A DNA stretch of 64,000 nt from Nanobdellota archaeon (GTDB lineage Archaea; Nanobdellota; Nanobdellia; Pacearchaeales; GW2011-AR1): the NCBI GenBank assembly GCA_038046245.1, contig JBBSWO010000001.1:12761-76760 (forward strand). Reading direction: 5' to 3'. The notes under the pieces were generated by a model that made no database searches, had not been told where the DNA came from, and saw nothing but the letters and a program-made list of their open reading frames with translations. This document shows positions 9,951 through 34,925 of this stretch, piece by piece. The position numbers were made by a program, and so were the translations under genes. The number at the start of each line of letters is the position of its first letter. Within the stretch, counting starts at the first letter, position 1.

Positions 9951-10355
9951 CTAAGTAGATAAAGATTCAAAATATTGAGAAACATCTACAAATTTCAAAC
10001 TTCCGGGATATAAAATTTTAACACTCATTTCTCCACCAAAATTCTCTGGAGGGATAATTCTAAGATTACCCTTAGTAGAATCAAAAATAGATGCAGAAAT
10101 TCTCACATCCTTTAAAACGCCATGAGGAATGTAAACATGTATATCGCTGCTTACTAGGTTAAATTCTGCATATTGAGAGCTAATAAACTCCAGCCTAGAA
10201 CTGGTACTATTAGAGTCAATTGGAATAATCCTATGAACAATCAGTTTGTTGTCTCCATCATATCTATCTCCTATATCTTCTCCGCTTTCCAGTCTTTGCC
10301 AATCTTCCCATCTAAGAATAGCTTCTATGTTAAAACCATTTTTGTTGATTATCAT
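9951..10355 (-). CDS. Hypothetical protein (134 aa), last gene of the minus-strand array
   Basis: ORF track. Same strand and 54 nt downstream of the VWA gene. No motif recognised. Confidence 0.5.
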   Translation of the reverse strand: MIINKNGFNIEAILRWEDWQRLESGEDIGDRYDGDNKLIVHRIIPIDSNSTSSRLEFISSQYAEFNLVSSDIHVYIPHGVLKDVRISASIFDSTKGNLRIIPPENFGGEMSVKILYPGSLKFVDVSQYFESLST

Positions 10356-10409
10356 GGATTAATTATTCTTACAGAGGTTAATAAGTTCATTGGTAATCAA
10401 TTGCAATTA

Positions 10410-11333
10410 TCAAGGCAAACTTACATACTTAGTGTTGCTCAAGAAAAATTCTAATACTAAAAGAACTATCGCAAAAATAAGAAGATAATCCTGTAACTTT
10501 ATAGCAACTTCTTTTTCAGTTATGTTAAACATCTCGGTGAATGCTCCCGACAAATTAGCCTTGTTCTCAGCTGAAAAATATTTTCCATGAGTGTTGTAAG
10601 CAAGGCTTTTCAATGAATCCTCATCTAGTTTAGACAAACCAAATTCAGTCGCCCCGCCTTCTTTAGTTCCCATTCCGATTGTGTTTATTACAACACCATA
10701 ATAATCTGCATAATCAATAGCTTCCTGAACACTTCCAACATTTAACTGGCCATCACTTAATATTACAATTGCTTTATTATCTTCGTTCTTTAACAGATTA
10801 GTTGATGTAAGAACAGACTCGTAAATGTCAGTCCCACCAAGACCACCAATCTCTATGGAATTGACGGCATTCCTTAGCTCGTCTTTTCTATCGGTCATGT
10901 CAATCTGTATCTTGCTGCCTCCCGAAAAAGAGATAACACCCATTTTTGTTCCCAAAGGAGAATTAGAAATAAAATCTTTAGCAGTATCTTTAGCCACTTC
11001 TATTCTGCTTGGAGAAAAATCAGTCGCCTCCATACTTTTGGAAGAATCTATAGCTATAACAAATGAAAATGAGCTTGCCTTCGTAAGAACATTAATTGTT
11101 AATCCTGAAACTGCAAAAACCAGAGCCAAAATTACTAGAGCATTAAGCGTAAGCAGTATAACATTTTTGGAGAAAAAATCTATCCCTTCTATTCTTGCTA
11201 TAGCATCAAAGTTTGCAAATTTCAAAGATTTTTTCTTCTTATTACTCAAAGCTAGAAAGTGTATGAAAAAGATAAGAGGTATCGCAAATAGGAAAAAAAG
11301 ATATTCTGGATGAGAGAAATAAAATAAAGCCAT
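10410..11333 (-). CDS. von Willebrand factor A (VWA) domain membrane protein, BatA-like
   Basis: The MIDAS-like FVIAIDSSKSM and ILSDGQ motifs are flanked by TM segments. I prefer the ATG at 11333 (MALFYFSHPEYL...) over the TTG at 11351; it sits 1 nt after the DUF58 stop. Confidence 0.75.
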   Translation of the reverse strand: MALFYFSHPEYLFFLFAIPLIFFIHFLALSNKKKKSLKFANFDAIARIEGIDFFSKNVILLTLNALVILALVFAVSGLTINVLTKASSFSFVIAIDSSKSMEATDFSPSRIEVAKDTAKDFISNSPLGTKMGVISFSGGSKIQIDMTDRKDELRNAVNSIEIGGLGGTDIYESVLTSTNLLKNEDNKAIVILSDGQLNVGSVQEAIDYADYYGVVINTIGMGTKEGGATEFGLSKLDEDSLKSLAYNTHGKYFSAENKANLSGAFTEMFNITEKEVAIKLQDYLLIFAIVLLVLEFFLSNTKYVSLP

Positions 11334-11334
11334 A

Positions 11335-12225
11335 TTAAATTTTCTTTTCAAGCCTCTCTTTCAAAAATACTGCAAGAGGAACTGAAAATGACCTTGAAGT
11401 CACCAAATCTAAATAATCAGCCTCAGTCTTCTTAAAAATCTCCTCAACAAATTTTGCCTGCTCTCTCGCATATTTTTCATAAGGTGCTCTTGCAACTTTA
11501 GGATTTATTATAACCTGATCTCCAGATAGAGAGCTTTCAACAACTATCTCTCCCTCAACATTTGGTAAAGTTATGTCTAGAGGATCTCTGACCCTTACCA
11601 AGATAGTTTCAAATAATTCTGAAAGTAAAGTAAGTCTTTTTTCAGATTCAGGTGTGACCCTCAAGAAATCAGATATCAAAATAACAGAGTTTATTGATTT
11701 GTTTAGATATCTCATTGCAAAATCCAGCCCTTTGTCCAGATCAGTAACACCCCCATAAGTTTCTGTGTTAGTCATTAAGTCCATCAAAAACTGAAAATGT
11801 TTCTCACCGTTTCTGGGGGTTATAAAATGTTTTACATCATTGCTAAACAAAAAAAATCCCACCCTGTCACCCTCTTCCATTATAAGTTTTGCAAATGCAG
11901 CAGTCAACTCAGCAATAAATTCGCACTTTAATTTTTTCCCAGAACCAAAAACCATGCTGCTACCCACATCAATCAAAAACATTATCTTAAGGTCTCTCTC
12001 TTCCTTGTATTGTTTGACCAAAAGTTTTTGTGCCCTTGAACTTGATTTCCAGTCAATTTCAGAAGCATCATCATCTGGAGAAAAATCTCTGTACGATTCA
12101 AACTCTAATCCTTTGCCTCTAAATAAAATTCTGTAGATATCTCTCTTAAGCCTAAATTCCTTCATGACGGCCTTGAATTCAGTTATTGCTTCAGGAATGT
12201 CCGTGTTGAGTCGTTTTTCAACCAT
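11335..12225 (-). CDS. DUF58 family protein (MoxR-associated)
   Basis: ESYRDFSPDDDASEIDWKSSSRAQKLLVKQYKEERD matches the DUF58 signature (Y/R-x-GDD-x-R-x-IDWK-x-SAR). Located directly between the MoxR and VWA genes. Confidence 0.75.
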   Translation of the reverse strand: MVEKRLNTDIPEAITEFKAVMKEFRLKRDIYRILFRGKGLEFESYRDFSPDDDASEIDWKSSSRAQKLLVKQYKEERDLKIMFLIDVGSSMVFGSGKKLKCEFIAELTAAFAKLIMEEGDRVGFFLFSNDVKHFITPRNGEKHFQFLMDLMTNTETYGGVTDLDKGLDFAMRYLNKSINSVILISDFLRVTPESEKRLTLLSELFETILVRVRDPLDITLPNVEGEIVVESSLSGDQVIINPKVARAPYEKYAREQAKFVEEIFKKTEADYLDLVTSRSFSVPLAVFLKERLEKKI

Positions 12226-13398
12226 TCAAACCCCCACCATGAACAAAATTTCGTCTATAATTTTGTCAGAGGTAACTCCTTCTGCCCTTGCTTTATAGTT
12301 GAGAATAATTCTGTGTCTTAAGACATAATGCGCAACCGACTTAACATCATTTGGAATGACGTAATTTCTCCCGTTTATCAAAGCCCACGCCTTAGCAGCA
12401 ATGAAAAGTCCAATGTTTGCTCTAGGCGATCCACCCCATTCAATGTATTTCCCATGGGGAAAATCTTTTTTTCTCGTTTTATCGACTATCCTGACAATGT
12501 AATCTTTGACTTTCTCACTCATGAATATGCTTTTTGTCATTTCCTGCATCTTAAGTATTTTTTCTGGAGACAAAATCGGTTTGACATTAAAGCTTTCAAA
12601 ACTTCTTAACGTAGAATTGTCAATCATGATCATCTTTTCTTCTTCTTTTGTCGGATATCCCATCAATATCTTGAACAAAAACCTGTCAACTTGAGCTTCA
12701 GGAAGATCATAGACCCCGCTGGACTCCAAAGGATTATTGTTTGCCATGACAAAAAAAGGTTTTGGAAGAGGATAAGTCTCTTTGGCAATCGTAACCTGTT
12801 TCTCCTGCATCGCTTCAATCATAGCAGACTGGGTCTTAGGAGGACTTCTGTTTATTTCATCAGCAATTATAAAATTTGCAAATATCGGTCCCTTAATTGT
12901 TTCAAATCCTTTATTAGGAGTATAAGTCGTGATTCCAATGATATCACTAGGTAATAAATCAACTGTGAACTGGATTCTCTTTGCAGAACATCCAGAAGCC
13001 TGCGCAAGTGTTTTTACAAGAAGCGTCTTTGCAATTCCAGGAACTCCTTCAAGCAAAACGTGTCCGTCACAAAGCAAAGCGCACATGAACGCATCAACAG
13101 CGTCTTTCTGTCCGACAATCACTTTCCCAACTTCTTCTTTAACTTTAAAAATCAAATCGTAAGCTTCTTTTATTTCAACAGGGACCTCATCCAAGTTCAT
13201 CTTCTCAAGAACCGGCGCCTTGGAGCTCTTCAGTTTATTCTTTATTTTCAACTCAGCTCTGACAGAAAGAACTTCATTTATTTCTTCATCAGTATAATTA
13301 TTATTCTTTAGTATCCCTCTTATCTGCTCGTTATCATACCTCTGCTCAACTGCTTTTTTCACCCAAGCTTCTATTTCCCCTTTTTTTTGGTCATCCAT
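12226..13398 (-). CDS. MoxR-like AAA+ ATPase with ~85-aa N-terminal extension
   Basis: HVLLEGVPGIAKTLLVKTLA (Walker A), FIIADEINR (Walker B), RIQFTVDLLPSDIIG, typical MoxR. The ATG overlaps the stop of the upstream adhesin gene (ATGGATGA). Confidence 0.85.
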   Translation of the reverse strand: MDDQKKGEIEAWVKKAVEQRYDNEQIRGILKNNNYTDEEINEVLSVRAELKIKNKLKSSKAPVLEKMNLDEVPVEIKEAYDLIFKVKEEVGKVIVGQKDAVDAFMCALLCDGHVLLEGVPGIAKTLLVKTLAQASGCSAKRIQFTVDLLPSDIIGITTYTPNKGFETIKGPIFANFIIADEINRSPPKTQSAMIEAMQEKQVTIAKETYPLPKPFFVMANNNPLESSGVYDLPEAQVDRFLFKILMGYPTKEEEKMIMIDNSTLRSFESFNVKPILSPEKILKMQEMTKSIFMSEKVKDYIVRIVDKTRKKDFPHGKYIEWGGSPRANIGLFIAAKAWALINGRNYVIPNDVKSVAHYVLRHRIILNYKARAEGVTSDKIIDEILFMVGV

Positions 13399-16300
13399 AA
13401 CGACTTACACCTCTGTTATAATTATCAGAATACGTATTGTTTTTTATACTTTCCTGTGTGTACAAACCTTTTTTCCTTCTCAAATTGATTCTTTTGTAGG
13501 AATAAAAAGCGACTCCGACAACAAAAACGGCGATTGTGGAAACAGCAAGGTATCTGTAAAGCTTATTCTCGGCTATTTTGGATAAAACCGGCTTTCCGGC
13601 CTGCGCAATTGCATTTTTACATGCATTCAAAGCCTCATCTGCCTTTTGATTGGCCAATGCAGTGTTTCCCTGCGAGGCATATCTTTTTGCTTCATCAACT
13701 AATTCTTTTATTTCAATGCACTCCGGATTTGACGCAATAAATTCTTCTGTGAAAACAATTTTTTCCCCGACATTCTCTCCCTCTTTTATTGTCAAAAATA
13801 TTTTTCCCCAATCCATGTATCTTGGACTGCTTGAGGTAGCATTGACAGTGATCTCAAAAGTCCCGACGTTCTGCGTGTCAACATTGAGAATCATTGTCAA
13901 ATTTTCCTTTTTTCCAGGTTGCAAGCTGGCAAATTCTCTCTTGCTGAATGAGATGTTTACATCATTCGCCAAAACATTGTCTTTAGCAACACTTCCATCC
14001 AAATTTATCATATAGAGGGTTGTACTGCCGGTATTATACAATGTTAAAGGCACTTCTATCTTGTCTTTCTGATAAGCAGAGATAGGCCCAGGCATTATTA
14101 TTTTCAAAGAAACCGGAACCTCAGTGCTTCCACCTCCAGAAGAGCTTGAAGTAGAAGTTCCCGTTGGTGCAACAAATCTAACAGTAAAAGAATTGCTGGA
14201 AGCAGTAGAAGAGCTATCGCTACCATTGACAGTAATTAACCCAGCAACAGCAGTTGTAGCAGACAAAGTCATTGTAAATCCAGAAAAGCTAGAGGTTATT
14301 GATGAGGTATTACTAGACAGAGTAAACGTAGGGCTTTGGGCATAATAAGGGTCGTTATAATCTAGATCTGTAAAATAAGAACTCAGGTCCAAGGTTATAG
14401 CTGTGCCATAAGTTGTTGGTCCAAGATCTGCAATATGCCCGCTAAAACTTACATTATAATTTGTATGGGTTATGTTAAGCTTAAATACAATTGTCGTATT
14501 CAGCAAAGATGCGTTTGTCAAATTGCTGTTTGACGGATAAACAACTAAAGTTAAATTTTTCAATAAACCATAAGTTTCATCAGTCATGTTGGAAGTAAAA
14601 CTCCAGTTATAGCTTGTTCCATTCCCATAATATGAAAGATTGTCTCTTAACAAAGATGAGGTGTAATTACAATTGGAGCTTGAGCCAAGAGGACAATTTA
14701 TTCCATCAACATAAAAATCATAAGTTAGGTTATCTCCAACAGAATGATTGACTGTAAAATTAAGCACAGATGTTACATTTTCAGTTAAATTGAAGACGTA
14801 GCTTGCAGCAGGAGAGGTAATATTTGGAAGCCCGTAAACACTAACCCAAAAATCTCCATAACCTATAGCACCAGTTGAATCATTCACGCTTATGTTAAGG
14901 TGGTATTTTCCATCTTGGCTTGAATTAAATGTTAGATTTATTATTCCAGTAGTTGAATTAAAAACACTTGTGTTTAAAAAACTCAAAGTGCTACCATCAT
15001 TCAAAAACGAATAAGAGAAAGTGAAATTTGTATTAGTTGCAGAGGTGTCATTGCCATCTTCAGTGTCTGTAACATTCATATCGTAATAAAAACTCCTGTT
15101 CACGGCAGAAGATTGGTTTGATAAATTTGAAAGAACTGGGTTGTGGTTTATCGCTAAAACGCTGAGATTAAATGAAAACGACGTTGAGTTGCTTGTTGAG
15201 TCAGTCACATTTATAGTGATGTTATAATTTCCAACAGACGCTTTGTTTGGAACAAAAATTGCTTGATATTCTGTTCTGTTTGGATATTGTGTTGTTGGGA
15301 AAGAATTTGTCAAAGAGAAATTGAACAAAGAAGTATTAATGCCCTGAATTGTTAAATTTACGCTAAAGCTCTCATTATAAAATCTTCTTTGACTAGTAGG
15401 GATTTTCACATCATCGTCATCTATCCACAGCTTTATCACAGTATAATTGTCTTCCGTCACATTCAAGGATGCGTTCCCAGCAACCTGCGCAGGAGTGGCA
15501 TTGACTGTTTGAAGTTGTTGTATGCTCGGACCATCGTTTATGTTTAGTATTGTAAAATTAAATGAAGTTGTGTTTGTGAGATAGCTGTCATTTATTGTAA
15601 TGTTAACAATATGCTGGCCAATATCCACATCCAACCCCGTGAAATTTATTATTCCTCCGCTTGTCAGATTAAAATTATCGAATCTTGTGTCATTGGCAAA
15701 ACTGAATGTTAGAGTATTCCCATCAGCGTCGGTAACATTTTCTGAAAGATTAAGATACAAATTGCTGTTTTCATAAATTACAATAGTTGTGTTAAGAGGA
15801 GAATTCCATGTTGGTGCGCTGTTGTTTATTATTGTGAGATTAAATGTGGTGTACGTTGAAAAATTATAGCTATCTTTTGCAGTGACGTTAATAGTGTAGC
15901 TTCCAGCATCGCTAGAATTGGGAGTAAATCTTATTTCAGCGCTGGTCCTGTTTGTTCCCGCAACAGGCATCTGTAAAATCGTTATGCTAAAATTAGACAA
16001 GCTAAGCTGTTGAGTTGGATTAGAGCTGTTCAATATTGTTCTGGTAAAATTAATCGTTTCATTGAATCCCCCATAACTCGCATTTTTATCTGGAACAAGA
16101 GTGTCATTATCGTAAACGCTGAGGTTTATGACAGTCAACAAATTTATCGAAGTGTTGACGTTGCCCACTGAAGCGATAGATGGAGTGGCATTTATAGTTC
16201 TGTTTACATAAACATAAATCTGGGTTATGTTCGTGTCACCATTGCTGTCAGCCACAGTAAAGTTTATTGTCCAATTTCCGACTTCTGTTTTTTGAGGAGT

Positions 16301-17368
16301 CACATCTATAGTGGCATTATACTGGAAATTGCTTGAACTGTTTGTCATATTGGCAAAAAACCAGCTGGTATTAGAAACGCCACTCTGCCCTGCAGCATAA
16401 TTTCTCAATACGGCATAGCTTGAAATGTTCAGCGTATCACTTGGATTCTTAGATCTTATTGAAATGTTGCATGCGCCAGACTGATTTTCCTGGAAAATTT
16501 TATTCTGACAATTGCTTATGTCAACCGAAAGAGAGGCCAAAACATTAAATGTGACTATGGTTGAATAATTAGTTGTCTTATTCACTTTGTAGGTTGAGTT
16601 ATCACAATAAGCATGTGGGCAACTGTAATTTGACCCGTAATCCCTGACAGAAATATTCGCATAGTAGACTCCAACTTCATTATTTGTAGGAGTCATGTTT
16701 ATCAAAGCAGAGATATTGTCAAGGCTAGTGATGTTAAAACCCATATCAAAAAGCGAACAGTTTTGATTGTCAACTGTATAATTACTCCAGGCAGCATGGG
16801 TGCACCTTGTAGCATTGAAAGTCACAGTAAAATTCAAAGGATAATGACTTTCTTCGTCGGTGGCATTCAAGTAAGAGCTAAGAGGATTTGCATTTGAAAA
16901 ATTATATGTTGTGTTTATATTTGTAAAATTTGGTGCATCATTTGTGGCGTTGATTATAAATTCAAACGAAACAGTCGTAGAACCGCCGCCAGAGCTGGTA
17001 TTTGTAGCCTGTATTGGTATTGAAAAAAATCCTGTTTGGTTGTCATAGGTTGCATTAATTGTTAAATTTCCAACAGAGGAGTTAGTTATAGACATCCAAC
17101 GGGAAACAATGCTGGTATCTGAAACGTTATAAGTTCCACTTGAATTTGTGATAGTAATGTTATTATCAACAGTGTTAATTGCAAAACTAACGTCATTATT
17201 AAAATTAGTTATGTTGGCACTGAAATTATGATAGTACACAGAATCTTCTATTGTTGTATAATTGGTCGTATCAGAACCGCTTTTCCAGCTAGGAGGTGTT
17301 GCCAACACAAAACCTAAAAAGATTATTCCAACAAAAATTGTGAATAGTACAACTCTACTTTTTTCCAT
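13391..17368 (-). CDS. Large secreted, C-terminally anchored surface protein with cadherin/Ig-like repeats; extremely rich in N-X-S/T sequons
   Basis: N-terminal signal peptide (VVLFTIFVGIIFLGFVLA). Repeat-boundary motifs NDAPNFT, NSAPTWN, INDGPSI and INHNPVL, as in cadherin-like domains. C-terminal TM (YLAVSTIAVFVVGVAFYSY) plus basic tail. Confidence 0.8.
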   Translation of the reverse strand: MEKSRVVLFTIFVGIIFLGFVLATPPSWKSGSDTTNYTTIEDSVYYHNFSANITNFNNDVSFAINTVDNNITITNSSGTYNVSDTSIVSRWMSITNSSVGNLTINATYDNQTGFFSIPIQATNTSSGGGSTTVSFEFIINATNDAPNFTNINTTYNFSNANPLSSYLNATDEESHYPLNFTVTFNATRCTHAAWSNYTVDNQNCSLFDMGFNITSLDNISALINMTPTNNEVGVYYANISVRDYGSNYSCPHAYCDNSTYKVNKTTNYSTIVTFNVLASLSVDISNCQNKIFQENQSGACNISIRSKNPSDTLNISSYAVLRNYAAGQSGVSNTSWFFANMTNSSSNFQYNATIDVTPQKTEVGNWTINFTVADSNGDTNITQIYVYVNRTINATPSIASVGNVNTSINLLTVINLSVYDNDTLVPDKNASYGGFNETINFTRTILNSSNPTQQLSLSNFSITILQMPVAGTNRTSAEIRFTPNSSDAGSYTINVTAKDSYNFSTYTTFNLTIINNSAPTWNSPLNTTIVIYENSNLYLNLSENVTDADGNTLTFSFANDTRFDNFNLTSGGIINFTGLDVDIGQHIVNITINDSYLTNTTSFNFTILNINDGPSIQQLQTVNATPAQVAGNASLNVTEDNYTVIKLWIDDDDVKIPTSQRRFYNESFSVNLTIQGINTSLFNFSLTNSFPTTQYPNRTEYQAIFVPNKASVGNYNITINVTDSTSNSTSFSFNLSVLAINHNPVLSNLSNQSSAVNRSFYYDMNVTDTEDGNDTSATNTNFTFSYSFLNDGSTLSFLNTSVFNSTTGIINLTFNSSQDGKYHLNISVNDSTGAIGYGDFWVSVYGLPNITSPAASYVFNLTENVTSVLNFTVNHSVGDNLTYDFYVDGINCPLGSSSNCNYTSSLLRDNLSYYGNGTSYNWSFTSNMTDETYGLLKNLTLVVYPSNSNLTNASLLNTTIVFKLNITHTNYNVSFSGHIADLGPTTYGTAITLDLSSYFTDLDYNDPYYAQSPTFTLSSNTSSITSSFSGFTMTLSATTAVAGLITVNGSDSSSTASSNSFTVRFVAPTGTSTSSSSGGGSTEVPVSLKIIMPGPISAYQKDKIEVPLTLYNTGSTTLYMINLDGSVAKDNVLANDVNISFSKREFASLQPGKKENLTMILNVDTQNVGTFEITVNATSSSPRYMDWGKIFLTIKEGENVGEKIVFTEEFIASNPECIEIKELVDEAKRYASQGNTALANQKADEALNACKNAIAQAGKPVLSKIAENKLYRYLAVSTIAVFVVGVAFYSYKRINLRRKKGLYTQESIKNNTYSDNYNRGVSRYG

Positions 17369-17531
17369 TTTTCTCCTCCATTCTTTTCAAAAAATCATTG
17401 ACAGCCAGGTCAATAAATTGTTTTTTATTTACAAATTTAAGCCTGTTTTCATCCTTGCTTATGAAATCTTCCACTTCTTCAAATAGTTTAGAATCAATTT
17501 TTACAACACTCCCATCATTCTTTTTCCCCAT
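17355..17531 (-). CDS. Small ribbon-helix-helix (CopG/Arc-like) protein, 58 aa, not in the ORF track (below cut-off)
   Basis: Hand translation from the ATG at 17531: MGKKNDGSVVKIDSKLFEEVEDFISKDENRLKFVNKKQFIDLAVNDFLKRMEEKNGKK*. This is a strand-helix-helix pattern. The stop at 17355 overlaps the next gene's ATG (17368) by 14 nt. Confidence 0.55.
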   Translation of the reverse strand: MGKKNDGSVVKIDSKLFEEVEDFISKDENRLKFVNKKQFIDLAVNDFLKRMEEKNGKK

Positions 17532-17583
17532 AGTTACTAAAAGTTACTATTTATTACCTAAAGTAACTAATAAAAATGGATAT

Positions 17584-19665: not shown

Positions 19666-19702
19666 GAAAAATAAAAGGAAGTAGCATTAATAAAATTAAC
19701 CA

Positions 19703-20179: not shown

Positions 20180-20210
20180 AAGAACCAGTATTAAACCTTA
20201 TTTTTAAGAA

Positions 20211-21810: not shown

Positions 21811-22014
21811 AGTAATTAAAGTAAAAAATTATTTTTATATCTTACTGTTTTTGATTTTGCCATCTTAACCGCTTTTGTTGAGTGTTAATAATTTTAGAAT
21901 AATCTCTTATTACAGAACCCATCAACAGAATAAACAAAATTAAATCACAACAAAGAATCAAAGCAATGTAGCATAATCTACAAACACTATCGAGAATAAT
22001 ATAAAAAAATAAAA

Positions 22015-22680: not shown

Positions 22681-22880
22681 TATTGTATTCCTCCTCTTTC
22701 TGATGTTGGAGCGATTTTAAATGAAATCTGACCGGTTGATGGCCCCTGATTGTTAATTGTCTTCTCAACAGTTTTTTGCGAACCGATAAGATTAGTAGAA
22801 AATGTTAATACAACGCTAACGACAGAAAGTATAATTGTTATCAACAACAATATCACCACAATTTTTTGACTGTTAACCAT
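22680..22880 (-). CDS. Small secreted/anchored protein (66 aa) sharing the post-TM FST motif
   Basis: TM then LTFSTNLIGSQK, similar to GVFSTLNLKSSG in the next gene. Its stop overlaps the next gene's ATG (TAATG). Confidence 0.55.
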   Translation of the reverse strand: MVNSQKIVVILLLITIILSVVSVVLTFSTNLIGSQKTVEKTINNQGPSTGQISFKIAPTSERGGIQ

Positions 22881-22956
22881 TTTATCCTCTTTTGATTCTT
22901 ATAACCAACTAAAATCAGAACCCTTTATAAACTTTTTGATGATTCAAAATATTCGT

Positions 22957-24156: not shown

Positions 24157-24647
24157 TTTTGCCCTCCTGTGTAAGCCCCATTATTTTCAACTTCCGTCGA
24201 TGTTCCAACTTCAAGAGGAATGCTTGTAGTAATTCCGCCCTTAGTTTTTTTGACCGCAACTGCAACATTCCCTGAATTTTCCAAAATGTTTTTTTCTTGG
24301 CCTGTTCTTAAATTCAACCCAACCTGCCCTTCTATTGTAAAGGTTTTAATCTCGCTTTCTCTAAGCAAACTCTTGACTTTCCAATAATAAATCCTAGGAG
24401 GCAAAGTGATCTCATCCCCTTCCTGCAGGATGATTGGATCTGTGAACTGCTCATCAAGCGAGATATAAACTTTATCACCATTTTGTATTTCAAAAACAAA
24501 ATCAGGATCAGAAACGACCTGGCCAGAAATTGGAGAAATTGCTTGAGGAGAGTTTAAGAAAAATAAGTACACAAAAATTCCAGCAACCAAAACAGCCTCG
24601 GCTATCAAAATCTTTTTCTCCAATCCGATTTTATTTTTTGTTTCCAT
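24153..24647 (-). CDS. Membrane-anchored hypothetical protein (164 aa)
   Basis: N-terminal TM (ILIAEAVLVAGIFVYLFFL). Start overlaps the giant gene's stop (TAATG) and its stop overlaps the next ATG (ATGA). Confidence 0.6.
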   Translation of the reverse strand: METKNKIGLEKKILIAEAVLVAGIFVYLFFLNSPQAISPISGQVVSDPDFVFEIQNGDKVYISLDEQFTDPIILQEGDEITLPPRIYYWKVKSLLRESEIKTFTIEGQVGLNLRTGQEKNILENSGNVAVAVKKTKGGITTSIPLEVGTSTEVENNGAYTGGQK

Positions 24648-27600: not shown

Positions 27601-30600
27601 TATTTTGAGGTGTTGAATAAAGTCCAAAACACCATCCGTTGACGCTTACATTTCTTGCCAAGCAAACTATCTTTTTGTGGTTTGATGTAGAACTTGAAGT
27701 TACATTTATCCAGGCAGAAACACTGAAGTTTTTTGTCAATGGACTTATATTTTGAGAATAATTCATGATAATAGCATCCCCCCCATCAAAACGATAAGCG
27801 TTTCCAAACTTTCCTAAGTTTGTCAAAGTAGGACAATTAAACGGCAAAGTGCAGTTTCCACTGTTTCCATATTTACCAACATCAACAAAAGAAGTATTGT
27901 TTTCTCCTAAAAGCGAATTATTGTTTAGATTCATCATAAACAATAAACCATCATCATATAAGCTGTAATTTGTCCCATTCCAATTATACACAAAGTTTGC
28001 AAGATTAGATTCATTTATTGAGATATTCACAGGAGCATAGCTGTCTGAAATTGTAGTATCATTAGCATATGTCGGAGGAACAAAACTTATATTAGGCACA
28101 ACACCTACAAAATGTAAAACTCTCGTCTCTGTTGAGTTTGCCCCGCCGTAGCTGTCATTGGCGTATCCATAGTAAGTATAATCTCCAAAAGTTAAATTTG
28201 TCTGGTTTGCAAAGAAATTCCATTTATTAATATCATACTTGTATAAATTTGACATATAAAGCTGTTGGATTTCATTTTGCGAAAAAGTCCTGTTGAAAAC
28301 CATTAAATCGTCTATTGAGCCATTAAATGATAAATACTGTGTACTGCCATAAGAAAGATGGGCTCCAATCATAGAAGGATAAGGATTATTGCTGGTGATT
28401 GTTCCCGTAACACTCACTCCATTTTGATATAATCCATTCACATAAATTTTGAAATTATGTGAACTACCAACATCTTCCCTTGTCATTGTAATAAACGACC
28501 ATTGTCCTTGTGGAACTGAATTAATATTAGAAAAAATTACCTGATCAGCAGGATTTCTGATAGTCAAGCCAACATAATTAGTATTTGCATTACGTCCATC
28601 CCAATAAATCCACCCATCAAAAAGTCCGTATAAATTTATTATATGCTGTTTGTCTGGATTTCCATTGTAATAAGGTTTTATCCAGGTCGAAAAAGTCCAA
28701 TTTTGTGTTGCATTTGTTATTGGATTTGAAAGGTTTATGTATCTCGGGCTTCCTGCACTGTAATTAGTCCCAGTAAAGTTAAATCCGCCGGAGTTCCTCC
28801 CGCCGTTCACCAACCATTCCAATCCATTTTTAACACTCCCATTGTTTTTATATTTGCTTAAGTCAGTAACTTGAGCACTGTTCTCACCTAAAGCCAGGAC
28901 ATTGTTGAAATTCATCATCAAGACCAAACGGTCATCGTAAAAAGAATAATTTATCCCATTCCAATTATAAATAAAGTTCGCCAGATTAGACTCGTTTATT
29001 GAAATGTTTACTGGAACACTTGTAGGAGTATAATTTTCATATATTGTAGCGCCATCATTTCGTGTTGGGCTGATAAAAGCAATTAATGGATTTTCGACGT
29101 CCATGACTATATTAATCTGCATGCTTTGGGTGATATTATAATAAGACCCAATCTTAGAACTTCCTTTGGAAACATTAATTGTGTGATTGTTATACAAAAT
29201 ATCTCCAGATAAAATCTTAACCTTATCTGTAACAGAGTTCCACGAAGTCAGTCCTTGTGAATCTGTTGATTGAGAAGATTCTAAGTTATTGTTTAAATCA
29301 CTAACATTAACCAAAGCCCCCTGAAGAGGAGTTCCGTTAAGGTTTGTAACATTAACTCTTGCATACCATTTTATTGTAATGTTATTTGTTCCTGTTGCTC
29401 CAAATGTAATTCTCGATTCATTAAATGTCGAGTTTAATAAAATGTTATTATAAGCGTTGGAATCAGAATAAATTTGTGAGGACAAATTATTCAGCTGAAC
29501 GCCCGTAAAGATATTGTTAGTAACAGAAAAAGCACCGCCATTAAAGTTGATTGACAGATTTGACGAGTTTATATTATCGCCATAAAACAAATTTCCCGAT
29601 GAGTTGGAGATTAAAGATACTCCATTAGAACTGACATCATTTGTTGTTATATTGTTGTATGAAAAATTGTTATTGTTTGTAAGAAAAATTCTAATTCCAT
29701 CAGAACTGCTGCCAGATGTTATCACTTTATTGTTGAAAATCTTATTTGCATTTGAATCTGAAAAAACATAAATTCCATAGCTAAAAGGCCCAAAAATTGT
29801 AATATTATTGTTGGAAGCATTATTATTTCCTGAAGAGGTAAATAAAATTCCTGAAGAAGAAGTACTGCGTATTGTAATGTTATTTGATGAAATATTATTC
29901 GAATATGATGAAAAAACCACAATTCCTGAGCTAGAGCTAAGGGAAGTATCAATCTGATTTAATAAAATACTATTAGAATTTGAAGCCCCAAGAAGATTAA
30001 TTCCATCTCCCCCAACAGAACTAGTAAAAATTTTATTGTAAGTAATATTGGAGTTTATTGAGCTAGATAGGACTATTGATCTGTAATTATTATTAAAAGT
30101 AGAATTATAAACAACAGCCCCATTAGAATAAATAACTAAACCTGTTTGATTTATATTAGAACTCCAGCCAGCATAACTCAAATAAGAACTGCTCATGTTG
30201 AACAAAGCCCCAGTGTTTACAACAAAGAAATAATTTGCATTCACGTTTTCCCCATTAGTAATATTAGAAGTATTTTTTATTGTCATGTTTCCTGTCGACA
30301 TCACGCTTATTCCCAGATAACCGTTAGTTGTTCCATTCATTCTCAATGTTGTGTTGTCCAAAACATAAATTCCTGAAATTGTCAAATTGCCATTCTGCCA
30401 AATACTATATCTAGAATTCTGAATTGTGAAAATTCCTCCAGAATTTATTGTAGTATTTCCAACAACTAATGTAACATTGCTCAACGTAAGACTTCCACCA
30501 CTTGTGACATTCAAAGACGCAATATTAATTACGGCATTAGAACACGAAGTGGCTCCGTTCACAATCCACCTATTAATTCCAGGAAGAGCTGGATTACATC

Positions 30601-33600
30601 CTGCATTGTTCGTGATGTCTATAGAACTCCAGCTTCCAACCAAACAATATGAGTTTCCATCCGGCGAAGTACTTTTGTTTGCATAACATGCTCCGCTAAT
30701 AACACAACTGTCTTGAGTCGAACAACATGCAGAGTCTCCGGCATTTTGTGCACAATAACCATCCTGGACAAATCCAGAATTATTCACATCACTATCGCAA
30801 GCATTATTCTTAGCACAAGCAGAACACGAAGCATGATAAACTCCTGAGTTTACACAAGTAGTATCAATAGAACAAGTAGGAGTATCAGGATAGCAATTGC
30901 CACCAACAGCACAATAATCTGATGTGCAAACACCATCGGCATAAGTTGCCCAATTTCCACTCTCAGAACCAGATGCATCGCTGTCACACTTCTCCCCCCC
31001 TCCAGAAGTACATCCGTTAACTAAAGTACCAGAGCTATTGTAAACACTTCCAGTCGCGCAAATTCCTCCAGAAGTGCAATATCCTTGAGCAGTATAACTT
31101 CCATCCGCAACATTAGTATCGCATGCATCAACATCACTTGTTAAACTTGAACAAGCAGAGCAATCGCTTCTGTAAGCACCATCATCATTGCAAGCATTTC
31201 CAGAATTATCACAAATCATATTGGTAGTAGAAAGATTACGTGTAGTAACTCCCTCTGCAACAAAACCTCCAATTCTAACATCAGTATCACAACTAGAAGC
31301 AGTACCTGCGCTTGCCTGGGTCATGCCCCAATATGTTGATGAAGACCTAAAAACTGTTGGCCCAATACAAGTAGGGGTGAAAGGAGCGCTATTTCCGCAA
31401 ATCCCATTTATACTACCGTCTCCACCAGAATCACAAAGATAGTTTAAAGTCACCTCTCCGCTTCCACATTCTGCACAGACCAGTTGAGAACTCGTATTGG
31501 AAGTTCCCTGGAAATAAACATTTGCTAAAGTAGCATCATCGCAATAAACTTTGCTAGTTCCATTGCTATAACACCATTGACTGCTTGATGAACAAAAACC
31601 ATTATTAGTTGAAGTTGCAACAGCACCAGCATTACAGCAGCATCCAGACAAAGAACCATTCCATGTTTCTCCGGCATTATTACCACAGCAAGCAGTGTTT
31701 GTTCCAGTAGAACCATTAAGCCATATCCCACCTCCACAAGTGCTACAAGTATAATTATTATCATCCCCAGTTGAATAATACGTTCCTTGATAACAAGAGG
31801 TATATTGTGCACCGCAAAAACTGTCATTAACTCCATCATCACCACAACATAAATTAGTAGAACCTCCAACCCAAGTTTGGCCATAGTAAGACCCAGAATC
31901 ACAAACATTTCCACCAAAACCCCCGCCAGCACAAGTCACCGAACAAGCAACATTACTAGTATCAGGATCTGTGCAATAAAGTGCACTAATTTGATTGTCA
32001 GAAGTAACACAATATCCTCCGTTACAGCAAGCTAATCCATTAGGACAATCAAACAAAGCAACTTGTCCGGCACATTTGCTGCCCAATGAACCAAGAGGAT
32101 CATCTCCAAACAACAAAGTGTAATTGCTCTGATTCGTGACATTCGTCTGATTCAAACTATAATTTCCAAAATTCAAAGAAACATTATTAGTTACAGCACG
32201 ATAAATGTCAAGTCTTGAAAGATTTACAGTTACACTACCTTGATATTCAATTGCTTTTCCTGTTGTTTTTAATCTGTCTCTTAATTCTGAAGGAGATAAA
32301 CTTTCATTTTCCAAAACAATTGCAGCTCCAGCAGCAACCATTGGAGTTGAAGCAGATGTTCCAGAAATAGTTTTGTCAGAATTCCCTAAACTTTTTGTCA
32401 GAATATTTACTCCTGGAGCTAAAACATCAACAGCTTCATTCACGTTTGCAAAACTTGCAATGTTATCGCTTTTGTCAGTTGCAGAAACTCTTGCAACACT
32501 CGAAGCACACGAAGGAGATTTTAAATTTGCTGAGCCATCATTTCCAGTAGCAGCAACAACAAATATTCCATTATTAACAGCAGTGTTAGCTAACTCAGCA
32601 ACAATATTAGAATCACAATATCCGCTGTAGCTTCCTGCACCAATACTGAATGAAATAATATCAACATTCTGATTCATACACCACTGCAACCCTTCCAGAA
32701 CACTGCTTTCATAACCACTTCCGCTAGCATCAAGAACCTTAGCAACATAAACATCAGCTCCCGGAGCAATTGTCTTCAGGATATAAGCGACTTCTGTACC
32801 ATGCCCATTGTCATCACTAGCATCAGAATCATTATTTACAAAGTCAAAGCCGGTAGTGTAACCAACTACAGAAGGATCAACACCAGTATCAATCACACAA
32901 ACTTTCTTTCCACTTCCGATTAATCCAAATTCATTTTTAACATCTAAACTTCTTATTATATTTTCTGAATCGTGAACTAGGAGATTGACAGGTTGATCAA
33001 TTACAATCTCAACATTTTGAAGCAAAGCAAGGTTTTGTTCATCCAACTCTAAAACTTCTAAATCATCAAATCCATCAAGTTTTTCACCAATAACCAATCC
33101 TCTATTTCTTATAATGACTCTTACCTTATTTTTGTTTTGTAAATCATTAACAACTTCACTATCAATCTTTATTCCTTTTTCTGAAATAATCTTATTGATT
33201 CTTTCTATCTTTGTCAGATTAACAGTAACATTGGTTTCATTTAAAGGCATCCCAGTTACGTTTGTGACATTTGTTAGGTTAGTCACATTTAATTGATCTT
33301 TTACTCTGATGTTTACAGATGAAGAAGTTATCTCAACAGTGTTGTAAACAAAACTTATTTTTAATGCTCCTTCATTTGCCTTTAAATTTAAAGGAGTAAA
33401 ATCAATGGGAATCTTAATGACTTCATTTGTTAAGTAATCCTGTCCAAATCCTTCTTTAAATTCAGAGTAATCAGTTGTTATAACTGCTCCATTATCATTA
33501 TATTGAACACTAACAGGGTGTAAAGAATCAACAATTTCTATTTTTTCATTTTTTTTCAACTGATAATTATATGGCTGAGTTTTAGAAACCTGACCCTCAA

Positions 33601-34522
33601 TAATTTCTGCACCAACAACCTGTCCGGTTAAACTTGAGCCAGAATCTTCGGGACTTACAGCAGTTGAGCCAGAACTCCCAGAATCTGAGACAGCGCCAGA
33701 AGTATCTGTACTGGGTTGCGATGTTGAATCTTGTGTTGTAGATGTAGTAGAAGGCTCACTCACAGTAGATGTTGTTTGATCAGAGGTTGTAGGGGTGGTT
33801 TCAGCAGGAGTAGTAATTTCAGGAGGCTGGGAAGGAGTTTCTGTTGTTGGTTGAGTTTCAGGTGAAGCTTCGGCTGGAGGGGCAGATGGTTCAGAAGTTG
33901 TTGCTTCGGTGTTAGTACTGTTGGTATCGTTGAAACTTTCATTCTTTACAACATCAACAGCAGTTTCCTTTTCCTTAAGGACTTTAAATTTAAAATCAAC
34001 CAAAGGATAGACCTCTTTTTTACCTAAAATACCAAATCCTTGACCGGTCCCATTGATATCTTTTCCCTCAACAAAGAAATTTCCTTGATTTAAGTTATCA
34101 GAAATCAAATCCTTCAGATTATAAGCACTGACAGAACCAGCATTATCAACGATTAGCTTAGAATCAGCAGGCATAAGCTCACCTTGCCTCAGCATAAGGT
34201 TTATATTTCCAGAAATATCTTCCCCAGGAGCATAATTATCTTTTAATTCAACAGAAACTTTTCCTGTAAAATTAAGATTGATTAAAAAGATTAAATTCGC
34301 AGTCAAAAGAATTATTAATAGTGATAAAAATCCAGCGACAAACCAAAATTTCTTTGAAGGCTTTTTTGCACTACCAAAAAAATTTGTTTTTTCTTTATGT
34401 TCGTGATTAGAATCATGAGGCCCAAGATAATGGGTCGTTACCCTACCGTCTTTTTTGATGCTTTCGTACAAGTATGGACCATAAACTTTCCCATCTCTTT
34501 TTATAAATTTTTTATAAACCAT
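24647..34522 (-). CDS. Giant (3,291 aa) multidomain surface protein: N-terminal motif + TM, Thr/Ser/Pro stalk, S8 subtilase, ~490-aa Cys-rich module, beta-helix repeats, 2x LamG, FG-GAP/VCBS-type propeller, C-terminal Ig/FN3-like domains
   Basis: From the ORF track translation: VCVIDTGVD / DDNGHGTEVA / SGTSASTPMVAAG (S8 triad). NNITIRSTSSSGILF-type PbH1 repeats. IDDLMVFNRTFSQNEIQQLY and IDEVRIWNRSLSAQEVRQLY (LamG). About 8 repeats of D-x-N/D-x-DG-x-x-D/E (e.g. GDINGDGQLDIIFG, TDLNGDGKDDLLFV) at about 25600..26700. I prefer the ATG at 34522 (MVYKKF...), preceded by GAGGGAG, over the GTG at 34525. Confidence 0.85.
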   Translation of the reverse strand: MVYKKFIKRDGKVYGPYLYESIKKDGRVTTHYLGPHDSNHEHKEKTNFFGSAKKPSKKFWFVAGFLSLLIILLTANLIFLINLNFTGKVSVELKDNYAPGEDISGNINLMLRQGELMPADSKLIVDNAGSVSAYNLKDLISDNLNQGNFFVEGKDINGTGQGFGILGKKEVYPLVDFKFKVLKEKETAVDVVKNESFNDTNSTNTEATTSEPSAPPAEASPETQPTTETPSQPPEITTPAETTPTTSDQTTSTVSEPSTTSTTQDSTSQPSTDTSGAVSDSGSSGSTAVSPEDSGSSLTGQVVGAEIIEGQVSKTQPYNYQLKKNEKIEIVDSLHPVSVQYNDNGAVITTDYSEFKEGFGQDYLTNEVIKIPIDFTPLNLKANEGALKISFVYNTVEITSSSVNIRVKDQLNVTNLTNVTNVTGMPLNETNVTVNLTKIERINKIISEKGIKIDSEVVNDLQNKNKVRVIIRNRGLVIGEKLDGFDDLEVLELDEQNLALLQNVEIVIDQPVNLLVHDSENIIRSLDVKNEFGLIGSGKKVCVIDTGVDPSVVGYTTGFDFVNNDSDASDDNGHGTEVAYILKTIAPGADVYVAKVLDASGSGYESSVLEGLQWCMNQNVDIISFSIGAGSYSGYCDSNIVAELANTAVNNGIFVVAATGNDGSANLKSPSCASSVARVSATDKSDNIASFANVNEAVDVLAPGVNILTKSLGNSDKTISGTSASTPMVAAGAAIVLENESLSPSELRDRLKTTGKAIEYQGSVTVNLSRLDIYRAVTNNVSLNFGNYSLNQTNVTNQSNYTLLFGDDPLGSLGSKCAGQVALFDCPNGLACCNGGYCVTSDNQISALYCTDPDTSNVACSVTCAGGGFGGNVCDSGSYYGQTWVGGSTNLCCGDDGVNDSFCGAQYTSCYQGTYYSTGDDNNYTCSTCGGGIWLNGSTGTNTACCGNNAGETWNGSLSGCCCNAGAVATSTNNGFCSSSSQWCYSNGTSKVYCDDATLANVYFQGTSNTSSQLVCAECGSGEVTLNYLCDSGGDGSINGICGNSAPFTPTCIGPTVFRSSSTYWGMTQASAGTASSCDTDVRIGGFVAEGVTTRNLSTTNMICDNSGNACNDDGAYRSDCSACSSLTSDVDACDTNVADGSYTAQGYCTSGGICATGSVYNSSGTLVNGCTSGGGEKCDSDASGSESGNWATYADGVCTSDYCAVGGNCYPDTPTCSIDTTCVNSGVYHASCSACAKNNACDSDVNNSGFVQDGYCAQNAGDSACCSTQDSCVISGACYANKSTSPDGNSYCLVGSWSSIDITNNAGCNPALPGINRWIVNGATSCSNAVINIASLNVTSGGSLTLSNVTLVVGNTTINSGGIFTIQNSRYSIWQNGNLTISGIYVLDNTTLRMNGTTNGYLGISVMSTGNMTIKNTSNITNGENVNANYFFVVNTGALFNMSSSYLSYAGWSSNINQTGLVIYSNGAVVYNSTFNNNYRSIVLSSSINSNITYNKIFTSSVGGDGINLLGASNSNSILLNQIDTSLSSSSGIVVFSSYSNNISSNNITIRSTSSSGILFTSSGNNNASNNNITIFGPFSYGIYVFSDSNANKIFNNKVITSGSSSDGIRIFLTNNNNFSYNNITTNDVSSNGVSLISNSSGNLFYGDNINSSNLSINFNGGAFSVTNNIFTGVQLNNLSSQIYSDSNAYNNILLNSTFNESRITFGATGTNNITIKWYARVNVTNLNGTPLQGALVNVSDLNNNLESSQSTDSQGLTSWNSVTDKVKILSGDILYNNHTINVSKGSSKIGSYYNITQSMQINIVMDVENPLIAFISPTRNDGATIYENYTPTSVPVNISINESNLANFIYNWNGINYSFYDDRLVLMMNFNNVLALGENSAQVTDLSKYKNNGSVKNGLEWLVNGGRNSGGFNFTGTNYSAGSPRYINLSNPITNATQNWTFSTWIKPYYNGNPDKQHIINLYGLFDGWIYWDGRNANTNYVGLTIRNPADQVIFSNINSVPQGQWSFITMTREDVGSSHNFKIYVNGLYQNGVSVTGTITSNNPYPSMIGAHLSYGSTQYLSFNGSIDDLMVFNRTFSQNEIQQLYMSNLYKYDINKWNFFANQTNLTFGDYTYYGYANDSYGGANSTETRVLHFVGVVPNISFVPPTYANDTTISDSYAPVNISINESNLANFVYNWNGTNYSLYDDGLLFMMNLNNNSLLGENNTSFVDVGKYGNSGNCTLPFNCPTLTNLGKFGNAYRFDGGDAIIMNYSQNISPLTKNFSVSAWINVTSSSTSNHKKIVCLARNVSVNGWCFGLYSTPQNNLTFTAFGVADYRSNYIPPLNQWVYLTATINESKYLTFYVNGGEFSQGYGLTNVIASNDDNFLIGGTTLIGSSTLSPDGFIGSIDEVRIWNRSLSAQEVRQLYLSNLYKYDFDKWNFFANQTNLTLGDYTYYGYANDSYGGANSTGVRVLHVRNTAPQIKSLAITPSPAYTKDSLNCTFNINDADQTNLNVNVSWRRNGAVILNQTVSGYQNDTLASVNLSRDLTYHDDNINCSIVAFDIFESNSSSTAIIIQNYTTSILTTQSAPVINQPITFTANYSSGVIGDVKQLIHNSTDLDTNDISHSIKVIDMNTDGIPDGYVLGNGSNFAAFAFNGSLLWVSATIPYPKYAIRLGDIDKDNQSEILGINYYDGDLFIFNMAGGLERTIDPGVSWGESLELGDINGDGQLDIIFGLGSGNGLFAYNSSGQQFWSNTALGALVELQLYDKNIDGVADYIAGSLGGRLFLINATNGSQIWNNTDTGEDASIFMDINNDNISEILYGRYNSGGGDGIRFSNLTSGSIVSFSPFSSYTPWVSRDLVKTDLNGDGKDDLLFVYLDSQNPQHNNLRAINNSNAVLWTYILPTLSVVYNMKIANIDDDIQQELITGGDSSTLNAFDINATNATTLLSYVWNVGSIGNDLGYSEAIDTGDSNKDGIADVVALSTNGIVYITQPVSCKIAFNDSVSADMIWNTTSRLWSYNRTFVSTGIYLYNTTCEKGGYQTKVNNTSIFIGNTLPTVTLYSPLNNTPLINRTPMLVWNGTDLDGKSDIKAYEINITCYYQDGSTCTDDNRYIIVNTGSPVIENYTLLTPLKYLADRNYYYTWKVRANDTVGFGTWSDEWRFNVTALIDINLTNLRVNFGLMLPNEINDTSDGSPLPFALENLGNVLVNVSINATNLWLTQPNPSQYFQYKFDNRSEPGSFNWFLSQTAWKNVPTQGEVKNALAYLGWQNANDAAEIDINVTVPGAQEGAGIRSSTINFTASLAE
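27160..29090 (-). repeat. Tandem duplication (2 x ~963 bp) inside the second giant gene, each unit encoding one LamG-like module
   Basis: ccaccatagctgtcatttgcatatccata at ~27181 matches ccgccgtagctgtcattggcgtatccata at ~28144. At protein level ...VNISINESNLANFIYNWNGINYS... matches ...VNISINESNLANFVYNWNGTNYS..., and both units end ...DKWNFFANQTNLT.GDYTYYGYANDSYGGANST. Boundaries are approximate. Confidence 0.8.
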
Positions 34523-34566
34523 CACTCCCTCTTTTTTAAATAAAAACCTTAGAAAATAATGGTAGG

Positions 34567-34579: not shown

Positions 34580-34584
34580 GATTT

Positions 34585-34869: not shown

Positions 34870-34925
34870 AAAATTCCACCAACCCAAACTTTTTAAACAT
34901 AATTAATCCTGATTATATATGTCAG

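Follow-up and report, generated by a model that had tools for sequence, protein, structure and literature searches.

Which structure is encoded by a long run of co-oriented genes for giant and small surface proteins in the genome of a Nanobdellota archaeon? The run occupies positions 9951-34522 of the stretch of DNA analysed here (the window, 64,000 nucleotides of contig JBBSWO010000001.1, assembly GCA_038046245.1), and its genes are called g1 to g15, starting with a giant surface protein, g1. In this study, we observed that g1-g14 (10410-34522) is a real gene cluster with conserved order in DPANN archaea. On balance, we favour the reading that these genes encode a cell-surface apparatus of Woesearchaeota/Pacearchaeota-type DPANN archaea which displays a giant, lineage-variable adhesin-protease, and in which one domain couples the giants and the small protein g5 to scaffolds of immunoglobulin (Ig)-like domains.

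In the list of open reading frames (ORFs) of the window, the interval 9951-34522 contains 15 non-nested minus-strand ORFs, and all plus-strand ORFs in it are nested inside minus-strand genes. A preliminary description of this DNA had counted 16 consecutive minus-strand genes; the same-strand array stands, but the count is 15. The junctions listed there were exact on re-checking: TAATG with a 1-nt overlap at 24647 (g1/g2), an ATGA overlap at 24153-24156 (g2/g3), a TAATG overlap at 22680 (g4/g5), overlaps of 32 nt (g6/g7), 14 nt (g10/g11) and 8 nt (g11/g12), and a 1-nt gap at 11334 between g13 and g14 (g14 ATG at 11333). In addition, g12 abuts g13. Of the 23 gene transitions outside the cluster, 10 involve a change of strand, and no same-strand run there is longer than five genes. 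From this switch rate we calculated a chance of ~0.565^14 = 3e-4 for a 15-gene run. The same-strand array exceeds chance, and the conserved order across ~30 independent loci weighs more than this run probability.

Gene contexts were compared for 3 + 1 homologue contigs, for 15 loci in GTDB genomes that an alignment of g6 had retrieved, and for 26 metagenome loci retrieved with the DUF58 protein. The order giant-g2-g3-g4-g5-g6-g7-(g8)-g9-g10-g11-MoxR-DUF58-VWA is kept in about 30 loci from different metagenome-assembled genomes (MAGs) and sites. These loci belong to Woesearchaeota, Pacearchaeota and Nanoarchaeota MAGs, and the refuting condition named in the preliminary description, an order conserved in no related genome, clearly fails. 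Proteins of the window are also present on Hainich groundwater contigs from the 0.1-µm fraction of wells H43/H41. In the most distant locus, L025 (g6 27% identical), the order g6-g7-g9-g11-MoxR-DUF58-VWA is retained and the upstream part is rearranged. The downstream flank (f1 and a GTPase gene) is syntenic too, which shows that the genomes of the closer relatives are collinear in general. We found no description of the cluster in the searchable literature.

Our reading draws on a domain shared by g5 and the giants:

24647..34522, minus strand: g1, 3291-aa giant surface protein
24650..25120, minus strand: g1C, putative 'docking' domain of ~150 aa at the C-terminal end of g1, g5-like
22015..22680, minus strand: g5, 221 aa, with a signal anchor, a G-x-A site and a ~180-aa glycosylated beta-rich domain; composed of the g5 domain only

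An alignment of giant C-termini from ten loci revealed a constant terminal domain, whose motifs LENxGN...V.V and D.aEID..vtVP...G.k.stv.ftAs mirror those of g5. Comparison of the giant C-termini with the g5 family by hhalign gave a probability of 98.6% (E 7e-16, 138 columns), and a hidden Markov model (HMM) built from the small g5-type proteins alone matched giants from six loci at their extreme C-termini, with E-values of 1e-6 to 1e-11. The 3' end of the giant gene is visible in 11 loci and the terminal domain was found in 11/11, including the AR13 locus, where the g1C HMM matches the C-terminus of an RCC1/WD40 giant of 7847 aa (E 1e-69) whose remainder is unrelated to g1. An exhaustive HMMER search showed the g5 family to comprise 2268 clusters at E<=1e-3 and 1295 at E<=1e-10, nearly all of 195-240 aa. 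The same search returned giants of 1879, 2662 and 4089 aa with the domain at the very C-terminus; S8 was present in 2/3 of them, LamG and/or FG-GAP in 3/3. A word-index protein search with g1C gave one match only. Sampled members of the g5 family were named only Woesearchaeota or Nanoarchaeota. The protein g5 evolves fast (median identity ~30%) and carries nine sequons (4.1 per 100 aa). G38 and A40 are nearly invariant and follow the hydrophobic helix; this G-x-A site fits a predicted cleavage site of signal peptidase I.

The giant g1 is identical in sequence to MEK6945198.1 of a Nanoarchaeota MAG. From the N-terminus, it consists of a cytoplasmic motif, a single transmembrane (TM) helix (aa 64-82), an S8 protease domain, two LamG domains, FG-GAP and the g5-like domain. 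The Pfam match to Peptidase_S8 (119 bits, E 3e-34, ~nt 32258-32917) has an intact triad (D546, H575, S723) within the DTG, HGT and GTSAS motifs. Laminin_G_3 occurs in two copies (one at ~27305-27754), followed by FG-GAP at ~26366-26542, and the protein contains 143 N-glycosylation sequons (4.3 per 100 aa). The SPEARE proteins of Nanohaloarchaeota resemble g1 as giant DPANN surface proteins with protease-like and LamG adhesion domains that are thought to mediate host contact. In them, a C-terminal TM helix is followed by a cytoplasmic ATPase-like domain (PMC6642349, PMC10266531), whereas g1 has one N-terminal TM helix and an extracellular g5-like end. SPEARE identity of g1 was rejected on this topology.

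Five further genes encode the anchored proteins that are proposed to receive the shared domain:

22957..24156, minus strand: g3, 399 aa, with three Ig-like beta-sandwich domains between a signal peptide and a C-terminal TM helix
20638..21810, minus strand: g6, 390 aa, paralogue of g3 with Ig-like domains and a C-terminal TM helix
20211..20669, minus strand: g7, 152 aa, N-terminal TM anchor and a single ASH/PapD-like Ig domain
24153..24647, minus strand: g2, 164 aa, N-terminal TM anchor, Ig-like 'YYWKV' domain and half a g5-like segment (LENSGNV)
22680..22880, minus strand: g4, 66 aa, conserved TM helix and one short amphipathic strand (sGnvxlxI)

An AlphaFold2 model of g3 (predicted local distance difference test score, pLDDT, 88.6) shows the signal peptide, the three Ig-like sandwiches and the C-terminal TM helix. 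Searched with Foldseek, it matches HYDIN/ASH Ig domains, the WxLIP structures 9i25/9i1y of Enterococcus faecium and RbmA (E 1e-8 to 1e-10), as well as the Vpr fibril; TM-scores are low, those of the WxLIP matches (9i25_C/9i1y, E ~1e-8) included, as expected for multi-domain chains. PF11797 WxLIP_HBD (DUF3324) is matched on domains 2 and 3 by 37 of 47 g3 relatives (best E 5.8e-8), two of which exceed its gathering cutoff, the g3 of the window not being among them. Among 321 homologues of g3, the best 120 share 53-77% identity and carry no annotation beyond that of a hypothetical protein from Nanoarchaeota, Pacearchaeota or 'archaeon GW2011_AR13'; a tblastn search of plasmids with a g3 relative gave a chance match only. 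As judged from the model and these matches, g3 would resemble a WxLIP/DUF3324-like membrane-anchored scaffold, and it is the most conserved surface protein of the cluster. Its paralogue g6 (27% identity, E 2e-26, blastp) has orthologues in 22 loci. An Ig fold had been suggested earlier for this 390/399-aa family, in agreement with the three Ig domains in the model of g3. In the g7 family, Cep192_D4 is matched by 13 of 18 members (best E 1.2e-6), ASH by eight (best E 2e-5) and PapD-like by two, all below the Pfam cutoffs.

The two smallest partners, g2 and g4, may each mimic part of the g5 domain. The half segment of g2 matches the start of g1C (hhalign 81%, E 1e-5), and its Ig-like domain is of the same type as that repeated in the giant. 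Wherever the 3' end of the giant gene is visible g2 was found, except in AR13. The protein g4, 60-78 aa long across loci (14 orthologues aligned), gave a weak hhalign match to residues 1-51 of g5 (58%, E 1e-4), and the g4+g5 pair is copied as a whole, with two duplications in AR13 and three in L025. The only two TAATG-coupled pairs are g1/g2 and g4/g5. Since g4 is without a signal-peptidase site, it would stay anchored in the membrane. We further observed that g2, g3 and g4 have zero N-glycosylation sequons and zero cysteines, while their neighbours g11, g1 and g5 carry 8.5, 4.3 and 4.1 sequons per 100 aa. It is tempting to speculate that the sequon-free proteins may offer glycan-free interaction surfaces on the scaffold. 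The identity among g3 homologues (53-77%), set against ~30% and nine sequons in g5, fits a conserved scaffold beneath an exposed variable component.

The closest precedent for such an arrangement was found in the WxL/Csc clusters of Lactobacillales and Listeria. These clusters have four components: a WxLIP protein built from two Ig-like domains plus one TM helix, a small protein consisting of the WxL domain only (~180 residues), a large adhesin with a shorter C-terminal WxL domain and, often, a small LPxTG-anchored protein; AlphaFold predicts that a strand of WxLIP inserts into the WxL domain (PMC10599100, PMC9772566). Each component has a candidate counterpart here. The proteins g3/g6 combine Ig-like domains with a C-terminal TM helix and show WxLIP_HBD similarity, g5 is the small domain-only protein, g1 is the large adhesin with a shorter domain copy at its extreme C-terminus, and g4 and g2 are small anchored accessory proteins. 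However, the pairing of a domain-only protein with an adhesin that ends in the same domain is found here for the g5 domain, not for the WxL domain. WxL domains require dual W-x-L motifs, whereas a single W-x-[LV] motif is conserved in g5 and lost in g1C. Furthermore, no recognisable WxL domain is present, DUF916 was not detected, the adhesin, 3-8 times larger, includes a protease, and the cluster adds g7, g9, g10, g11, a signal peptidase I and MoxR-DUF58-VWA. Because the defining WxL domain was not detected, the cluster was not filed as a member of the WxL/Csc group; by analogy, this group would provide the best model for its working logic, with a different shared domain. The statement in the preliminary description that no such system is known therefore applies to the whole combination, but partial precedents exist in the WxL/Csc clusters and in the Bat module MoxR-DUF58-BatA. 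Tip adhesins of the FimH/PapG type and cargo proteins of type IX secretion also combine a variable N-terminal part with a constant C-terminal beta-sandwich that couples to surface machinery, but outer membrane, usher and type IX secretion components are missing here, and the likeness is an analogy only.

The main rival explanation, which we regard as rather unlikely, is a fibre built by donor-strand exchange in the manner of TasA/TapA/SipW, archaeal bundling pili or Tat-fimbriae. In such a fibre, g5 would polymerise head-to-tail into a thin pilus after cleavage by signal peptidase, the giant would sit at the tip by way of its pilin-like C-terminal domain (FimH-like), g4 would initiate or terminate and anchor the polymer, and g3/g6/g7 would act as chaperone or platform. 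The variable N-terminus and the C-terminal subunit-like domain of g1 are the architecture of a tip adhesin, g4 consists of little more than a TM helix and an amphipathic strand resembling the g5 N-terminus, and the g4/g5 pairs occur in tandem copies. The weak PapD-like/ASH similarity of g7 points in the same direction, and so does the LamG region of the giants, which weakly matches the tip protein TafC; the TafC model matches this region only (47 bits, cutoff 410). In addition, the g4-g5 pair has signals of its own, as expected of a highly expressed major subunit:

22924..22931, minus strand: putative TATA-like box TTTATAAA before g4-g5, read from the intergenic sequence
22003..22014, minus strand: oligo-T run TTTTATTTTTTT right after the g5 stop codon, candidate archaeal terminator

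Termination at oligo-T is known from archaeal transcription. A gene for signal peptidase I in the cluster also has its counterparts in sipW and tafD (PMC11821415):

19703..20179, minus strand: g8, archaeal/ER-type signal peptidase I

The assignment of g8 rests on TIGR02228 (63.2 bits, cutoff 51.85) and on the SGSM (SGSMAPT), HRV and GDNN motifs (Ser/His/Asp). The gene lies inside the cluster in L009, L011, L012, L015, L026, L036 and L052 and is missing from it in L007, L014, L016, L022, L025, L043 and L045-47, so that roughly half of the loci do without it in the cluster; this argues against a fibre and equally against the term 'dedicated', which had been applied to the enzyme.

In combining genes for a small secreted beta-rich subunit, accessory proteins, a small regulator and an ER/archaeal-type signal peptidase I, the cluster resembles TasA-TapA-SipW of Bacillus, AbpA/AbpB and the Tat-fimbriae (tafA-G). 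Unlike in these systems, the signal peptidase is not constant, and we found no TasA/DUF1102/TafA membership, SipW-cognate signal, Tat motif or DUF5305. Neither TasA/Peptidase_M73 and DUF1102 (Pfam; g5 and 88 relatives) nor the SipW-cognate signal TIGR04088 (NCBIfam; g5) was matched, and PDB-sequence profile searches with g5 returned no TasA or AbpA chain. Single proteins, alignments of 20 and 68 members and PDB-sequence profile searches gave neither a Pfam model nor a PDB sequence match for the g5 family. Since the family lacks such relatives, the label 'TasA-like' given to it in the preliminary description is unsupported, and TasA/camelysin membership of g5 was rejected after the Pfam, NCBIfam and PDB-profile scans had all remained empty. 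A fibre also loses from the lack of any sequence link of g5 to TafA, from the absence of a twin-arginine (RR) motif in the N-termini of g5, g4 and g1, and from the absence of a Pfam match to DUF5305 (TafG) in the cluster proteins. A counterpart of NVTLEI, the candidate donor strand of g5, lies within g1C (NVTALIDI); therefore, NVTLEI need not be an extension. The poor structural model of g5 adds one point in favour, the weak Foldseek matches being jelly rolls (viral; E>0.03, not significant). A type IV pilus was rejected, as the cluster has no class III signal motif and no PilB/PilC-type gene.

The second half of the cluster follows downstream of these genes:

17584..19665, minus strand: g9, 693 aa, strongly conserved membrane glycoprotein with TM helices at both termini
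17355..17531, minus strand: g10, 58-aa conserved cytosolic protein with a strand-helix-helix pattern
13391..17368, minus strand: g11, 1325 aa, strongly conserved and heavily N-glycosylated protein of Ig repeats, with signal peptide and C-terminal TM helix
12226..13398, minus strand: g12, MoxR-type AAA+ ATPase (AAA_3 191 bits, AAA_lid_2 76 bits)
11335..12225, minus strand: g13, cytosolic DUF58 protein (VWA-fold, 133 bits), without TM helix, syntenic in 28 loci
10410..11333, minus strand: g14, BatA-like VWA protein with three TM helices (VWA_2 75.7 bits; BatA_N 26.6 bits, cutoff 25.9)

Orthologues of g9 occur in 15 loci (E 1e-111 to 0); the protein has 25 sequons and 24 Cys. In its C-terminal third (17584-18200, minus strand) a run of 11 glycines is followed by repeated Cys-rich modules, C.DG..N..E.G.DCGG.C..C; neither g9 nor these modules gave a Pfam, NCBIfam or PDB match. 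The glycoprotein g11 (112 sequons, 8.5 per 100 aa) matches the Ig-like families DUF4625 and He_PIG and has orthologues in 20 loci (median identity 53%). It is directly followed by MoxR in every locus that reaches that far. MoxR-DUF58-VWA all pass the Pfam cutoffs, and their order is kept in more than 12 loci. In g14, VWA_BatA_Lepto scores 76 bits, below the equivalog cutoff, and the VWA/MIDAS (DSSKS) domain is predicted from the positive-inside rule to face outward. The family scores agree with the original calls of S8, signal peptidase I, MoxR, DUF58 and VWA, and the original view that the products are secreted or membrane-anchored holds for almost every one of them. Bat modules share with the cluster AAA_3 MoxR, DUF58 and BatA_N+VWA in the same order; unlike them, the module here has no BatB, BatC, BatD or BatE, adjoins a larger surface cluster and lies directly downstream of the 1325-aa glycoprotein.

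Upstream of g10, as well as before g1 and g6, candidate promoter elements were recognised:

34523..34596, minus strand: putative promoter and leader region of g1, TTTAAATA box at 34571-34578
21829..21840, minus strand: putative TATA-like box ATATAAAAATAA, 19-30 nt before the g6 ATG
17532..17589, minus strand: putative g10 promoter and operator, TTTAAATA overlapping the g9 stop codon, followed by an AGTTACT/AGTAACT heptad array

L052 has exactly the same 74 nt ahead of the g1 ATG, although the flanking proteins are only 60-93% identical. In 14 loci, the heptad array is found within the 50-80 nt before g10, directly after the TTTAAATA box. Heptad density upstream of g10 is 31/kb vs 0.37/kb elsewhere (85-fold), and the array is the only cluster of at least three heptads in the window. 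We read it as a putative autoregulated promoter for g10-g14. The conserved upstream repeats also suggest that g10 is probably a small DNA-binding regulator. It has 12 orthologues (55-78% identity), and no match to ribbon-helix-helix families was obtained in Pfam, NCBIfam or PDB, profile search included; its earlier assignment to this fold was thus a pattern-level guess, but the operator-like repeats support a DNA-binding role. A shared element, TTTAAATAGTTAC (TATA box and first operator half-site), is common to the promoter regions of g1 (34565-34580, minus strand) and g10 (17575-17590, minus strand) in several loci, a hint that the g1 promoter could be a further target of the g10 protein. A scan for bacterial promoters and terminators gave counts at chance level and is uninformative for an archaeon. 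Because of the oligo-T run after g5 and the TATA-like boxes before g4, g6 and g10, the array is probably better described as about four co-oriented transcription units (g1-g3, g4-g5, g6-g9 and g10-g14) than as one transcript. The array had been called uninterrupted, which is true in that no opposite-strand gene intervenes, but a single transcript is improbable.

These boxes and the T-run raise a second rival explanation, namely that the locus is an envelope island and not one machine. Genome streamlining and shared regulation would hold together separate units: an adhesin module (g1-g7), S-layer-like glycoproteins (g9/g11) with the regulator g10, and a generic Bat-type MoxR-DUF58-VWA. We consider this improbable, more so than a fibre. 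In bacteria and archaea, MoxR-DUF58-BatA is widespread as a stand-alone module; g11, with its 112 sequons and its C-terminal TM helix, has the traits of an S-layer glycoprotein; and the synteny of the downstream flank among closer relatives can be counted for it as well. Besides, surface genes do cluster in these genomes: on the 635-kb Woesearchaeota contig of L025, the three tandem g4/g5 pairs have directly upstream of them, at 3281-5531, a 'putative S-layer protein' of the PACE-CTERM type (NF033506, 230 bits) together with a pacearchaeosortase (NF033505, 121 bits). These neighbours link the cluster to envelope biogenesis genes. No sortase was seen in the cluster of the window. However, the order from g6 to the VWA gene persists in this distant locus, where general collinearity is unlikely. 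Overlapping start and stop codons join g10-g11-g12-g13, with the abutting codons extending the chain to g14, and g9 follows immediately after g4-g5 in L043; these points count against separate units.

A surface-display and attachment complex remains our preferred reading. From the observed domain homologies, folds, topology signals and synteny, we infer how it might work. The giant and the small, abundant, glycosylated, fast-evolving g5 would share one beta-rich domain, placed at the extreme C-terminus in the giant, and both would be exported by Sec via their N-terminal signal anchors. At least g5 would be released at the conserved G-x-A site by signal peptidase I, either g8 or a housekeeping enzyme. 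The shared domain would dock onto the membrane-anchored proteins g3, g6 and g7 and the tiny anchored partners g2 and g4, which appear translationally coupled to g1 and g5; docking would probably occur by beta-strand/beta-sheet complementation. The separately promoted second half (g10 with its operator, the glycoproteins g9/g11 and MoxR-DUF58-BatA-like VWA) might mature, stabilise or regulate the surface assembly, in which case the AAA+ ATPase would work via the VWA proteins. Host attachment would be the purpose of the complex. DPANN archaea depend on cell-cell contact (PMC6642349), and the context of the organism, a DPANN archaeon of the 0.1-µm groundwater fraction, was counted in favour. The preliminary description had proposed a surface fibre or attachment structure; attachment is the best reading, and a fibre would be a less probable form of it.

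Several observations weigh against such a complex. The AlphaFold2 model of g5, built from only seven sequences, is poor (pLDDT 53). The Pfam WxL model was matched by 0/68 members of the g5 family at E<=1 and no WxL chain was returned from PDB by profile. In the g3 family DUF916 was not detected, and the WxLIP likeness is limited to generic Ig-like domains. Archaea are without peptidoglycan, the ligand of WxL domains. The absence of g8 from about half of the loci has to be added. Moreover, g9, g11 and the Bat-like module could function independently of the genes beside them, and the putative internal promoter and terminator signals imply that the genes need not be co-expressed.

A bolder proposal, which we put forward only tentatively and regard as doubtful, is a hitherto unrecognised host-attachment organelle present throughout the lineage of Woesearchaeota/Pacearchaeota. 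Interchangeable giant 'warhead' proteins (protease, lectin, propeller) would plug in by a universal C-terminal domain and co-assemble with g5, perhaps as a fibre, on a platform of Ig proteins, which the MoxR AAA+/VWA module would assemble or mechanically control; such an organelle would have no true homologue among known pili, S-layers and secretion systems. DPANN make up a large share of archaeal diversity and apparently live attached to other cells. Woesearchaeota/Pacearchaeota are uncultured, and the molecular basis of their cell contact is the gap to which the cluster speaks. It connects a defined group of partner genes with the well-known 'giant surface proteins' of DPANN genomes and therefore offers a concrete, testable model of how a giant adhesin-protease is mounted. 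The C-terminal g5-like domain is a simple genomic marker for finding relevant adhesins, the parallel in architecture with the WxL/Csc surface complexes of Gram-positive bacteria is unexpected, and MoxR-DUF58-VWA, whose function has long been open, gains a defined structural context.

The borders of the cluster and a second giant gene are described by the following features:

9951..10355, minus strand: g15, 134-aa ORF at the end of the array
34585..34887, minus strand: gU, ~94-100-aa cytosolic ORF upstream of g1, just outside the range
34420-34522 and 7260-7361, minus strand: N-terminal giant motif

No homologue of g15 was found in any of 44 other loci and no family was matched; in most relatives the VWA gene is directly followed by the convergent flank gene. 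For these reasons g15, which had been counted as a member of the array, stands outside the system and is lineage-specific or spurious. Upstream, gU would make a 16th gene; it is conserved in the same position in L052 (60% identity over 100 aa, tblastn) and had no family match in library scans. It is a possible regulator whose membership in the cluster is uncertain. An intron-containing tRNA gene of 122 nt (34926-35047, plus strand; Rfam 55 bits, missed by ARAGORN) lies just upstream of the cluster; it marks this border and confirms that the DNA is archaeal. The giant motif, ~35 cytoplasmic residues of the form MV[YF]K[KR][FY]I.R.GK.[YF]GPY.YE[ST]...G...[TS].Y[LV] followed by one TM helix, opens both giants of the window; it is conserved in seven giants, which come from five loci, has no other occurrence in the window and matches no family. 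The second giant gene (3-7361, minus strand; >2450 aa) runs past the left end of the window, so that its C-terminus lies outside, and encodes S8 and a LamG/TafC-like region. In L026, L031 and L035, giants related to it are found at the corresponding place, behind the GTPase gene.

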